Part shown: in pieces, positions 16,334 to 17,670 of the stretch | How the letters are laid out: each line of letters begins with the position of its first letter | Position numbering within the stretch: position 1 is the first letter of the stretch | Origin: Elusimicrobiota bacterium | Lineage (GTDB): Bacteria; Elusimicrobiota; UBA8919 | DNA: 64,000 bases | NCBI GenBank assembly: GCA_041658185.1 | Contig: JBBAAR010000001.1 | Span: 122,400 to 186,399 of the forward strand | Reading direction: 5' to 3' | Made by a program: the position numbers and the translations under genes | The notes under the pieces: model-generated | Seen by the model: only the letters and a program-made list of their open reading frames with translations | The model's database searches: none | What the model was told of the DNA's origin: nothing

Positions 16334-17670
16334 CTGAACCTCGTAGTAAGCACAAACCTTTGTAAATCCTCGTCATATCTGTCAGCCGCAGGCGTTTGGT
16401 ATGACCTTATTGCAAACTCATAACCGAAGTCAATATCAAATTTTTCCATTACATATCCGCTGCCGAAAGAAAAACCGTAAAAAGTCGGAATTGCTTCCTT
16501 TACTATATCGGACATATAATACCAATTATAAACAGTATTGTCCCAATTCTCGTAAAACTCCTGATACTTAAAACCGCACCTGACCGGAATCCAGTCATTC
16601 AGCCACATTTCAAGTCCTAATTTTAACTCGTCGGTTTTTTCATAACCGGCAGGATGCTGTCTTCTGTTATTGGTGTCGGCGCCATTTATCGTCTTCGTTA
16701 CGAATGTCAAGACATTCCAGTTCTGTCTCTCCCAGTCGGCTGCAAAAAGCGTTCTGAACTTGTCCTTGAACCGGTAAGAAAAACCGAACCCGAACTTCTC
16801 CGGATATTTGAGGTCGCCTTTACTGACGGTTTTTGCGGCTGCTGAAACTGCGGTAGTTAAATTGCTGTCGGTCTCGGTCTCGGTAATGTCATATTCAACG
16901 GTTGCGGGTGTTTGGTAAAATCCGCCGCAGGTGTAATTTGACTGATTAAAAACAAGCCCGTATCTTGCACAATGTCCAGCGTATTCGGTGGAAATATCGT
17001 AGGCACTTTTCAAACTCGGCAGATTGTTGCTGTATGAAGTGTATTCGCGCGACGCTAATGGCTTGCCGCCGAGAAGCCCGTAAGAAAATCCTACCTGCAG
17101 TTCGTCAGCAATTTTTAAACCGAATCCGACATCCGTTTTTCTTAAACCACCGGAAGCGACTATATCGGTATCCGAAATTTTCTGCATTGTCTGAGAAAAG
17201 GCTGTCCAGGAAAACCTGTAAGAATAATCCAAAACGGGGGAATTATTTACGCCGAAAATAAGTGTGTTCCGTACAACCGGAACGGCAATACCAAGACCGG
17301 CAAGTTGAAAATAAACATTCTCGTTGGTTATATCAAGTATATTTTCTTTTTCATCAAATAAAACATAAGAAGGAATAACGGACACAATCATTTTATTCGC
17401 GGTGATACCTACTATCGTTGCGGGATTTACCGCGAGGGCAGAGGCATCATTTATAGTTGTAATTCCGGTTGAACCCATACCGACGGAGCGTGCGGAAAAA
17501 CCGGAAACAACATCTCCGAAATTATTAAGTCCGAGTTGTGTGTAGCCGTAAAGAGAAAGTGAACAAAAGTGAACAAAAGTGAACAAAAGTGAACAAAAGT
17601 GAACAAAATTCCACTTTCTTTCACTGTCTTTCCACTTCTTTTCACTGTAGTTCACTGTATCTATCACCAT
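16327..17670 (-). CDS. FadL/PorV-like outer-membrane beta-barrel protein
   Basis: FSARSVGMGSTGITTINDASALAVNPATI motif and a C-terminal ...TTRFRW aromatic terminus. The signal peptide (KKWKDSERKWNFVHFCSLLFTFVHFCSLSLYG) is encoded by repeat A. Confidence 0.6.
   Translation of the reverse strand: MVIDTVNYSEKKWKDSERKWNFVHFCSLLFTFVHFCSLSLYGYTQLGLNNFGDVVSGFSARSVGMGSTGITTINDASALAVNPATIVGITANKMIVSVIPSYVLFDEKENILDITNENVYFQLAGLGIAVPVVRNTLIFGVNNSPVLDYSYRFSWTAFSQTMQKISDTDIVASGGLRKTDVGFGLKIADELQVGFSYGLLGGKPLASREYTSYSNNLPSLKSAYDISTEYAGHCARYGLVFNQSNYTCGGFYQTPATVEYDITETETDSNLTTAVSAAAKTVSKGDLKYPEKFGFGFSYRFKDKFRTLFAADWERQNWNVLTFVTKTINGADTNNRRQHPAGYEKTDELKLGLEMWLNDWIPVRCGFKYQEFYENWDNTVYNWYYMSDIVKEAIPTFYGFSFGSGYVMEKFDIDFGYEFAIRSYQTPAADRYDEDLQRFVLTTRFRW
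17560..17670. repeat. repeat family A copy (4.5 x gtgaacaaaag, then inverted ttcac units)
   Basis: gtgaacaaaagtgaacaaaagtgaacaaaagtgaacaaaagtgaacaaaattccactttctttcactgtctttccacttcttttcactgtagttcactg. Confidence 0.7.

Follow-up and report, generated by a model that had tools for sequence, protein, structure and literature searches.

Hairpin elements with tandem-repeat arms at cistron junctions of an Elusimicrobiota genome, and their apparent use as signal-peptide modules

Gene layout and hairpin elements

The window analysed here is a stretch of 64,000 nt (contig JBBAAR010000001.1, positions 122,400 to 186,399) from the metagenome-assembled genome (MAG) of an Elusimicrobiota bacterium (GCA_041658185.1). 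From its first position to about 50 kb nearly all genes lie on the minus strand; they encode a Tad/Flp pilus system, UvrD, ComEC, FadL/UPF0164-like outer-membrane proteins (OMPs), proteins of the type IX secretion system (T9SS) type, HHH_3 proteins and others. The product of ORF 16327-17670 matches the NCBI protein WC947_00630, encoded on a contig of 257,790 bp, at 100% identity. Dispersed among these genes are eighteen hairpin elements of five families, named A1-A4, B1-B5, C1-C4, D1-D3 and E1-E2 (Table 1), each built of a short tandem array and its inverted copy. All of them lie within 1-38 kb, and none occurs in the metabolic-gene half of the window. Cistron junctions hold 17 of the 18 elements, C4 being an in-frame insert inside a gene, and signal-peptide sequence is encoded by ten, none of them in family D.

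Tandem Repeats Finder returned short-period arrays at every site listed in a preliminary description of this DNA; the array at 17556-17608 consists of 5.3 units of AAAGTGAACA with 100% matches and adjoins a second one at 17609-17659. A repeat search placed an inverted copy near each array (arms of 25-46 nt, 72-100% complementary), and folding of the minus strand, which is the gene and mRNA sense, gave one long imperfect stem of 13-53 pairs per element. Most copies without an open reading frame (ORF) form 26-44 pairs, with fewer in C1 (13) and C4 (19), and most elements have a minimum free energy (MFE) z-score between −3 and −7 relative to dinucleotide shuffles. An ungapped Watson-Crick hairpin scan of the whole window yielded 14 elements at a score of at least 14, compared with 1.2 in composition-matched shuffles, and nine at a score of at least 16, compared with 0.2; all nine coincide with elements of the preliminary description. 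Its core observation, arrays and inverted copies that form stable hairpins at gene junctions, is thus borne out by the array search, the folding z-scores and the excess over shuffled sequence. The stable pairing that it had proposed to look for in the leader regions was found in most elements and is weak in C1, C4 and E2.

The families are supported by an all-against-all BLAST comparison, with 2-8 copies each in about 45 kb and an inter-copy identity of 80-98% over 25-105 nt. B1 and B3, for example, are 96% identical over 54 nt, and two B copies just outside the window 98% over 61 nt. D1 matches a copy 17 kb away at 95.7% over 93 nt; this copy lies at 15384-15476 of L021, a contig under a different European Nucleotide Archive accession that extends beyond position 1 of the window. 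Repeat units measure 10 nt in family A, 7 and 13 nt in B, 7 nt in C and E, and 8 nt in D, and of the 10-11 bp previously given for A, B and D only the value for A stands. Most arrays are imperfect and hold at most three units.

The purine fraction in all 16 compact elements is 0.55-0.86 in the first half and 0.19-0.44 in the second. This order recurs in most copies at related loci, and no element shows the opposite, pyrimidine-then-purine polarity. The reverse complement of a purine-then-pyrimidine hairpin has the same polarity, which is therefore uninformative on the orientation of the elements relative to the genes. A polarity specific to gene orientation was rejected for this reason, and the informative observation is the absence of reversed elements. 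A2 aligns to the reverse complement of A3 at least as well as to A3 itself.

Signal peptides encoded by the hairpins

The elements differ in where translation begins. In A2, A3, B1, C2 and E2 the start codon lies just 5′ of the 5′ arm and overlaps the upstream stop, both arms are translated, and the hairpin makes up nearly the entire signal-peptide coding region. In A4, B3, B4 and C3 the start lies in the loop, such that the 5′ arm is an untranslated leader rich in AAGGU, AGGAAG and AGAGGA boxes and the 3′ arm encodes the hydrophobic h-region. Seven copies (A1, B5, C1, D1, D2, D3 and E1) are non-coding, with the start 3′ of the whole hairpin. They nearly fill the intercistronic spacer, beginning 1-8 nt after the stop codon and ending 8-30 nt before the next start, and the genes that follow them include a cytoplasmic ATPase and ComEC. 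Families D and E have a GGUGUUA element, a probable Shine-Dalgarno (SD) sequence, after the 3′ arm; in D1 and D2 it stands directly before the next start.

Judged from sequence, the repeats of the ten coding copies are translated as signal peptides. Fifteen full-length orthologs of the OMP headed by A3 (16327-17670; 41-81% identity) share invariant residues that begin at the end of the 3′ arm (Y43, G47, G52, D53 and others), and an L-Y-[GAS]/Y-[TS] site (the slash marks cleavage) is conserved ahead of them. No alternative in-frame start lies between the arrays and the invariant mature residues; since these residues abut the 3′ arm, the true starts of the ten coding copies do not lie downstream of the arrays. 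The repeat-encoded N-termini carry a net charge of +1 to +7 in the n-region, and their best 12-residue Kyte-Doolittle window reaches 1.86-2.54, compared with 2.25-2.81 in the ordinary signal peptides of the window. By charge, hydropathy and conserved cleavage site, all ten would classify as Sec-type signal peptides. The 3′ arm of the coding copy E2 is free of the UAA stops that litter the arm of the non-coding E1. In-frame reading in either orientation gives Lys, Arg, Glu, Trp and Gly codons followed by Leu, Phe, Ser, Cys and Ile codons, and the succession of purine arm and pyrimidine arm therefore yields a basic n-region and a hydrophobic h-region whichever way the element lies.

We give next to no credence to an assembly or annotation artefact, in which the repeats were mis-assembled or the true starts lay downstream so that the repeats were 5′ untranslated region (UTR). 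The source is metagenome-assembled and repeats are error-prone, but the second assembly (L021) is identical, the same architecture recurs in six other contigs from different samples, and the mature N-termini adjoin the 3′ arm as described; for the coding copies this reading is effectively refuted. The preliminary description had regarded the signal peptides as dictated by the repeats, which is true of ten elements (basic n-region, hydropathy of 1.9-2.5, L-Y-[GAS]) and not of the other eight of the 18. It had let the arrays span the start codon, as some do with a start upstream or in the loop; the seven with a start downstream of the whole hairpin do not. A purely 5′-UTR location, which it had named as contrary evidence, fails for the ten coding copies and holds for seven others. 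Its tie between the elements and exported proteins has to be given up, given seven non-coding copies, some of them before the cytoplasmic ATPase and ComEC, and one linker insert.

Similar signal peptides were sought elsewhere. A protein homology search with the 44-aa A3 signal peptide returned no candidates, and an exhaustive HMMER search with the same query found only a paralog in L001, a groundwater Elusimicrobia MAG (GCA_016218625.1) syntenic with 8-19 kb of the window, and spurious ORFs over arrays. A metagenome scan with a 26-nt family-A array gave 12 matches, all in unrelated iteron-like contexts without a hairpin partner, and a literature search found no description of hairpin-encoded signal peptides.

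Genes within the hairpin loops

B2 and C3 each carry an ORF in the loop that begins right after the 5′ arm and matches PF05635 (E=2.6e-23 and E=4.4e-41, respectively), a family of four-helix-bundle (4HB), bAvd-like proteins. Their arms measure 43-45 nt, with about 350 nt between them. The two 4HB proteins are only 26% identical and reside in different hairpin families, and the ORF-less B and C copies share their arms with B2 and C3. Against bAvd itself the C3 ORF scores 34.7 bits, below the cutoff of 40. The broad spans first assigned to these elements (18872-19305 and 24251-24730) do hold them, and are broad because of the 4HB gene in the loop.

Comparable arrangements occur in other genomes. 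In L005, an 87%-identical 4HB gene at the orthologous site is flanked by expanded C-type arrays, and in L006 a 4HB gene within a hydrogenase operon has (ATAGTTC)x5 on one side and the inverted array on the other. This 4HB-bearing element of L006 and the ORF-less signal-peptide hairpin of the L001 phospholipase-C-like gene, both from the HY919 MAG, belong to one family. In the Omnitrophota genome GCA_041653035.1 (L007, 2900-3500), a PF05635 gene with inverted AACAGTT-type arms lies between two tRNA genes, as an insertion in a tRNA operon spacer that resembles the intervening sequences (IVSs) of rRNA. In Planctomycetota (L008, L022 and L025) a shared purine-then-pyrimidine hairpin with CTGCGGTCTCCT stands about 30-130 nt upstream of the PF05635 start.

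The PF05635 family takes its name from the IVSs of 23S rRNA. The IVS of Coxiella measures 428-444 nt and has a 28-bp stem of terminal repeats with an S23p ORF in the loop, and RNase III cleaves within the stem of the Coxiella and Leptospira IVSs (PMC4990558). PF05635 genes also occur wedged between operon genes, for instance cmr3 and cmr2 (PMC3936711). A literature search found no description of tandem-plus-inverted arrays around PF05635 genes.

Turnover and exchange between genomes

A scan of genome contigs with the OMP alignment recovered only L001 and one short contig. No orthologous junction of L001 is without a tandem-plus-inverted hairpin, but the family often differs, as it does at four junctions or more. 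At the phospholipase-C-like gene, L001 has an AGTTCAN/TATGAAC family where the window has B1; at OMP 13359-14444, A2 of the window corresponds to a GGAAGTC/ACTTACT family; and at OMP 17664-19256, B2 with its loop ORF corresponds to a plain hairpin of family A. Pairwise alignments of window and L001 show a replaced hairpin body between sharply conserved flanks. A3 is kept in L001 at about 93% nucleotide identity and with the same five units, the mature proteins being 57% identical. L002 is more distant; there the signal peptides of the three OMP paralogs are hairpin-encoded and those of the B4 and C3 orthologs are ordinary, and the hairpins are therefore dispensable.

The same cassette can head different genes. 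The A3 gene has an ortholog of 75% amino-acid identity in L026 (Elusimicrobia bacterium A5) that begins with the C2 cassette of the window, 92% identical over 119 nt from ATGGT to CTTTACGG, and past this point agrees with the A3 gene; C2 itself stands before a different gene of the window, that of an M6 peptidase. In L027, an 81% ortholog has a cassette similar to B3 whose loop and start (MELKIKNH) are identical. The flanks at the start codon and at CUUUACGG pair with each other at the stem foot. The swaps, the near-identical copies and the replaced bodies argue that the cassettes are modules with the start codon at one end and the Leu-Tyr-Gly (CUUUACGG) codons of the cleavage site at the other.

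These exchanges make it very unlikely that the elements are cis-regulatory stem-loops for translational coupling or mRNA stability that arose in situ at each junction, with the family resemblance reflecting convergent SD-like purine and anti-SD-like pyrimidine units rather than copying. Local evolution would accommodate starts at the stem foot or in the loop, stop/start overlaps of 4 and 7 nt, boxes of AAGGU, AGGAAG and AGAGGA that pair with ACCUU and CUCC, and spacers filled exactly by hairpins. However, near-identical copies of 54-119 nt at unrelated junctions, and on different genes in different genomes, require copying. Cassette and host gene are already incongruent in the case of C2 and L026, and the loop ORFs and the in-frame C4 copy would be left unexplained.

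The comparison also bears on the earlier proposal of contingency loci, in which slipped-strand change in the number of 7-, 8-, 10- or 13-nt units would phase-vary outer-membrane and secreted proteins. Unit lengths that are not multiples of three, the five perfect units of A3 and the stop codons met by off-frame readings of the B arms are all in keeping with it. The array of C3 differs in length from its L005 counterpart, from which we conclude that arrays evolve quickly; nothing indicates on/off switching. No copy-number polymorphism between on and off frames was seen across the assemblies and orthologs compared, a scope outside which low-frequency read-level variants lie. L021, possibly assembled from the same reads, matches the window at 100% identity over 14,322 bp that contain six arrays; A3 has an unchanged copy number in L001, where the mature protein is only 57% identical; and each of the 15 full-length orthologs keeps the reading frame. 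Moreover, most arrays are short and imperfect, the seven non-coding elements include some before housekeeping genes, and a paired inverted array is not a feature of known contingency loci. Phase variation is thus highly improbable.

Structure at the transcript level

For 29 elements taken together, folding predicts 105 G-U pairs on the sense strand, compared with 62 on the antisense strand. B5, A3, A4, D1 and the family-A copies of L001 are far more stable as sense RNA, as is an element at the secretin gene of L021 just outside the window (MFE −44.7 sense, −16.8 antisense), and none of the elements folded on both strands has a comparably strong antisense bias. Strand asymmetry is mixed, and a sense-only RNA structure for all elements was rejected. 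The bias hints at selection on transcript structure. The translation-regulating hairpin suggested in the preliminary description is a plausible candidate role.

The main rival holds that the repeats are selfish or neutral and have no role at the RNA level. They could be debris, resembling transposable elements of the miniature inverted-repeat type (MITEs), of a 4HB-carrying IVS-like element, or products of slippage and quasi-palindrome template switching, persisting where harm is least, i.e., in spacers, interdomain linkers and permissive signal-peptide regions. ORF-bearing and ORF-less copies within the same families, the in-frame linker insertion of C4, copies before cytoplasmic genes, and the ordinary signal peptides in L002, by which the hairpins are dispensable, would all be expected, as would the many elements that fold equally on both strands and the different registers within one family (start upstream in B1, in the loop in B3 and B4). 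We nevertheless regard this rival as somewhat unlikely. It does not account for the G-U excess on the sense strand, the several elements stable only as sense RNA, the exact boundaries at start codon and cleavage site, or the continued occupation of every orthologous junction across family replacement, and no transposase or target-site duplication was found in the window.

Proposed origin and function

The explanation that we favour, at about even confidence, is that the elements are lineage-specific, IVS- or MITE-like interspersed hairpin cassettes, intercistronic RNA stem-loops that have been co-opted as portable signal-peptide modules. With tandem arms present as inverted copies, both DNA and transcript could form an imperfect stem-loop of 25-45 bp, and the ORF-less copies look like miniature derivatives of PF05635-carrying elements with IVS architecture. 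Seated at the cistron boundaries of long co-directional operons, the elements would move by copying or conversion from one junction of a genome to another and give way to other families between genomes, and about ten of them have come to encode the Sec (or lipoprotein) signal peptide with which the next protein is exported. In polycistronic mRNA the stem-loop probably gates initiation of the downstream cistron, with ribosomes that end at the overlapping stop opening the stem; starts or SD-like boxes at the stem foot or inside it, together with the stop/start overlaps, suggest obligatory translational coupling. In the non-coding copies the stem may, by analogy with IVSs and Correia elements, determine RNase III processing or stability. 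Spread is probably by gene conversion or template switching at short conserved flanks, a route we propose because no transposase, integrase, reverse transcriptase (RT) or transposase associated with repetitive extragenic palindromic (REP) sequences (RAYT) is present among the window ORFs scanned.

Several points weigh against this explanation. A Pfam scan of the window ORFs found no transposase, integrase, RT or RAYT domain, and the junction alignments contain neither target-site duplications nor flanking direct duplications. C1, C4 and E2 are thermodynamically weak by MFE z-score against dinucleotide shuffles, about half of the elements fold alike on both strands, and palindromy of the DNA alone could explain them. 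Retention at orthologous junctions could reflect conversion targeting already colonised sites instead of selection. Compared with rRNA, where IVSs are excised, excision of coding copies by RNase III would sever the message; cutting a stem with a coding 3′ arm would destroy the mRNA of the gene that follows. No inverted arrays flank three of the 4HB genes, those of planctomycetes, which means that the association is not universal, and 4HB proteins are not known to mobilise DNA. The functional steps and the mechanism of mobility are ones that we infer rather than observe.

Rather unlikely, in our estimate, is a further reading in which each family is the cognate target of one PF05635 (Avd/S23p-like) protein encoded in a master copy, which would promote copying or conversion from junction to junction. 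If true, cassettes might be copied into rRNA and tRNA operons as well, the IVSs of rRNA and the elements in mRNA would form one class of mobile RNA-hairpin element, and a long-enigmatic family of IVS proteins would gain a function.

On the favoured explanation, interspersed hairpin repeats would serve as exchangeable coding modules for protein export. They would exploit a property of the genetic code, by which, whichever way the element is read, a purine-rich arm is translated into a basic peptide and its complement into a hydrophobic one, and would provide a concrete case of signal peptides that evolve by cassette replacement much faster than the proteins they export. The widespread, functionless PF05635 family gains a broader and testable setting in the hairpin loops of mRNA, tRNA and rRNA operons. 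In candidate-phylum genomes, such elements can be expected to mislead gene callers about start sites and into spurious fusions such as that of 4HB and outer-membrane protein, and to confuse CRISPR (clustered regularly interspaced short palindromic repeats) and other repeat finders as well as signal-peptide predictors.

Individual elements and neighbouring features

Table 1 Hairpin elements of the window. All coordinates are window positions; z, MFE z-score; MFE, sense/antisense; MBL, metallo-beta-lactamase; a slash within a peptide marks the cleavage site.
Element	Coordinates	Strand	Pairs	Arms and start codon	Gene context and product
A1	3508-3587	−	26	Non-coding	Fills spacer from RcpC stop (3588) to TadZ/CpaF-like ATPase; likely ATPase start MSGKIIAVMGSKGG, ~3489, 3′ of hairpin; 706 aa in L021 annotation
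A2	14333-14433	−	35	Both arms translated from ATG 14444 (ATGA overlap with upstream stop)	Signal peptide MIKTVNKSDNYSEHKWRKSERKCTLFHFLSLLFTFFHFLSLTLYS/ATPG of OMP 13359-14444
A3	17554-17662	−	43	5′ arm of GUGAAAGAAA-like units, 3′ arm (UUUUGUUCAC)x5; both translated from ATG 17670, overlapping the ...KW stop of the upstream OMP (ATGGTGA)	Codons 3-39 of 42-codon signal peptide (MVIDTVNYSEKKWKDSERKWNFVHFCSLLFTFVHFCSLSLYG/YT) of OMP 16327-17670
A4	29342-29504	−	44 (13 G-U)	67-nt loop with ATG 29447; 3′ arm (UUUUGUUCAC)x4; MFE −51.3/−34.8	h-region of PorP/SprF-like protein 27897-29447
B1	9016-9125	−	35	Both arms translated from ATG 9137 (ATGA overlap with PD-(D/E)XK gene stop)	Signal peptide …CLNLYLLFIPLTFLFG/WIHNTHRG of Zn phospholipase-C-like protein
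B2	18873-19308	−		IVS-like; 43-nt arm pair, 77% complementary, around PF05635 4HB ORF from loop ATG 19256 (~18918-19256)	Stop-free into 3′ arm (ALILILTLNLIPLTFLYS/YTYRG) and FadL-like OMP 17664-
B3	20488-20602	−	41	5′ arm untranslated, with AAGGU boxes; ATG 20566 in loop	h-region (MELKIKNHIIKVICLNLYLLFIPLTFLSG/YSS) of OMP 19325-20566
B4	22582-22712	−	41	ATG 22681 in loop	h-region of HHH_3 protein 20606-22681
B5	27085-27168	−	38 (10 G-U)	Non-coding; MFE −32.9/−6.8	SpoVG-like gene stop (27174) to LTD protein start (27056); then U-rich tail
C1	1301-1345	−	13	Non-coding; z −1.8	ATPase stop (1348) to lipoprotein start
C2	16220-16313	−	33	Both arms translated from ATG 16333 (ATGGTGA overlap)	Signal peptide MVKKSIKRIEDRAQRTERLARSLLIFTTLYALCSMLCLYG/VPAK of M6 peptidase 14441-16333
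C3	24252-24732	−		IVS-like; 45-nt arm pair around PF05635/bAvd-like ORF 24332-24700 (122 aa, own TAA stop), then SD (GAAGGAG) and ATG 24330	h-region of outer-membrane/HHH_3 protein 22711-24330
C4	28083-28145	−	19	In frame; z −0.2	TPR-HHH_3 interdomain linker of ORF 27897-29447 (…GQRIEDRGQKTETPLPALRSS…)
D1	12876-12949	−	27	Non-coding; (AGAGAAUU)n/(AAUUCUCU)n	Fills spacer from small membrane-protein gene stop (12957) to GGUGUUAAC-AUG of ComEC (12867)
D2	13289-13361	−	26	Non-coding	OMP stop (13359) to GGUGUUAUU-AUG of small gene 12957-13280
D3	27814-27890	−	26	Non-coding	Stop 27897 to SpoVG-like gene start 27791
E1	9889-9975	−	32	Non-coding; UAA stops in 3′ arm	Begins 4 nt past ComEC stop (9979)
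E2	37482-37572	−	35	AU-rich; both arms translated from ATG 37582 (ATGA overlap); z −2.3	Lipoprotein signal peptide …ICLILILNFQFSIFNCFFTG/C of MBL-fold protein 36593-37582; lipobox-like FTGC

Some assignments of the preliminary description change at this level of detail. The supposed partial repeat at 27147-27170 is part of the full 38-pair hairpin B5, and the supposed junction element at 28084-28150 (C4) lies in frame inside an ORF, in the same reading frame as the C2 signal peptide (RIEDRGQKTE). The repeats at 12872-12952 and 13288-13362 are hairpins as described, and two separate ones (D1 and D2) that flank a conserved small gene. A single cargo-carrying composite of D1 and D2 was rejected, since the enclosed 107-aa gene has a conserved ortholog in L001 and the two are therefore separate junction hairpins. 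The PF05635 loop genes, the replacement and swapping of cassettes and the strand symmetry of the polarity had all been missed.

In B2 the 4HB ORF has no stop (17664-19256 on the minus strand, around 18905-18930), which results in a 530-aa ORF; there is no alternative start before the h-region, and a run of seven A stands at the junction of the 4HB and outer-membrane parts. This is either a real fusion of 4HB, signal anchor and outer-membrane protein that is cut by signal peptidase or an indel error.

Further repeats of related appearance were noted. At 4400-4470 (minus strand), at the junction of an MBL gene and rcpC, another tandem-plus-inverted hairpin has ACAGGAT and ATCCTGT units, followed by a T-run and a promoter-like TTGACA...TATCAT site; it resembles a terminator built in the same style. 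Within ORF 22711-24330, a purine-rich family-A-like array at 23114-23163 (minus strand) encodes a charged linker (EEPVKKSEEKVEESEKPV), has no pyrimidine partner and may be half an element. Beyond the window, the next 6.4 kb of L021 contain five more elements (14394-14479, 15371-15462, 17525-17618, 19246-19338 and 20178-20213). Among them is a B copy that separates two TadB/C genes, and a new family with GAUGCAG/CUUGUAU units, in which the signal peptide of the secretin is encoded, folds stably as sense RNA only. Two blocks of direct repeats (22 nt x2) at 16624-16666 and 19033-19079 of L021, mutually inverted and 2.4 kb apart, flank three genes (TPR, LTD and DUF192).

A separate motif, CAACTACTTYCG(TAGTTG), forms small intergenic hairpins unrelated to families A-E, with six matches against 0.17 expected (36485-36496, 38523-38534, 38574-38585, 39633-39644, 43193-43204 and 46645-46656) and a related sequence at 5585-5661; GCAACTAC sequences in L001 are similar to it. 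The window also encodes two ComEC paralogs (9979-12867 and 50515-52746), one without and the other with a recognisable MBL domain, and several stand-alone exported proteins of the MBL fold. T9SS-type components (PorP/SprF, PorV-like proteins and C-terminal sorting domains) are present in this Elusimicrobiota genome. At gathering threshold Rfam matched no family in the window, rRNA included, and a promoter and terminator scan showed no enrichment at the elements and no match to canonical terminators.

Comparison with known systems

Several established classes do not describe the elements. A CRISPR array was rejected as there are no spacers, and diversity-generating retroelements (Avd with RT and template and variable repeats) and retrons as no RT domain occurs in the window. 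Integron attC sites or gene-cassette arrays do not fit either: gene order is conserved with L001 (housekeeping Tad, ComEC and UvrD genes) and no integrase is found among the window ORFs.

In Rickettsia palindromic elements (RPEs; PMC10969869), palindromic repeats are likewise tolerated in frame and add peptide to proteins, as in C4 and the signal-peptide copies. RPEs differ in belonging to another phylum, having no sequence similarity to the elements described here and not being built of tandem units; they insert into internal surface loops of housekeeping proteins and do not form N-terminal signal peptides. Correia elements, also known as Neisseria miniature insertion sequences (NEMIS), enterobacterial repetitive intergenic consensus (ERIC) sequences, BOX elements and REP sequences with their mosaic elements (BIMEs) are, like the present elements, multi-copy imperfect intercistronic palindromes co-transcribed with genes. 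RNase III cleaves Correia elements at the inverted repeats, which alters the fate of the mRNA (PMC10969869). Dispersed near-identical copies with terminal inverted repeats, as expected of MITE- or REP-type elements, are present in the window, whereas target-site duplications and a transposase are not. The elements further differ from the Correia and REP types in that no integration host factor sites or RAYT partner were found here, their arms are internally tandem-repetitive, and they form many small families and not one consensus; a systematic signal-peptide coding use is not described for those types.

Heptamer repeats are tandem 7-nt units immediately upstream of operon start codons, with length steps of 7 nt and a patchy distribution across phyla (PMC4679880); our comparison covered the short tandemly repeated repetitive (STRR) sequences of cyanobacteria and the TAACTGA repeats of Beggiatoaceae, Cyanobacteria and Bacteroidetes. 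Related CAACTGT/AACAGTT units occur in L002 and L007. Heptamer repeats are direct arrays, with one inverted set among 170 in BOGUAY (PMC4679880), and differ in that they do not pair into hairpins, are not reported to encode signal peptides and have no link to PF05635. The contingency loci of Haemophilus, Neisseria and Moraxella resemble the elements in that genes for surface proteins begin, at the 5′ end, with short tandem units of a length not divisible by three. Unlike them, the arrays described here are paired with an inverted copy, short and imperfect, and neither length polymorphism nor an off-frame allele was seen among them.

The IVSs of rRNA share the long stem of terminal inverted repeats and, in B2 and C3, the optional S23p/PF05635 ORF, which begins right after the 5′ arm. 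ORF-bearing copies measure about 440-480 nt, short ORF-less versions exist, and the sporadic distribution (PMC4990558) likewise suggests horizontal or copy-paste spread. The elements differ from IVSs in lying in mRNA, between or inside protein-coding genes, and not in helices 25 or 45 of rRNA, in arms that are tandem arrays of 7-13-nt units, and in a 3′ arm that is often translated. The combination of tandem-array arms, signal-peptide coding, cassette swapping and PF05635 loop genes sets these elements apart from each of the systems compared.

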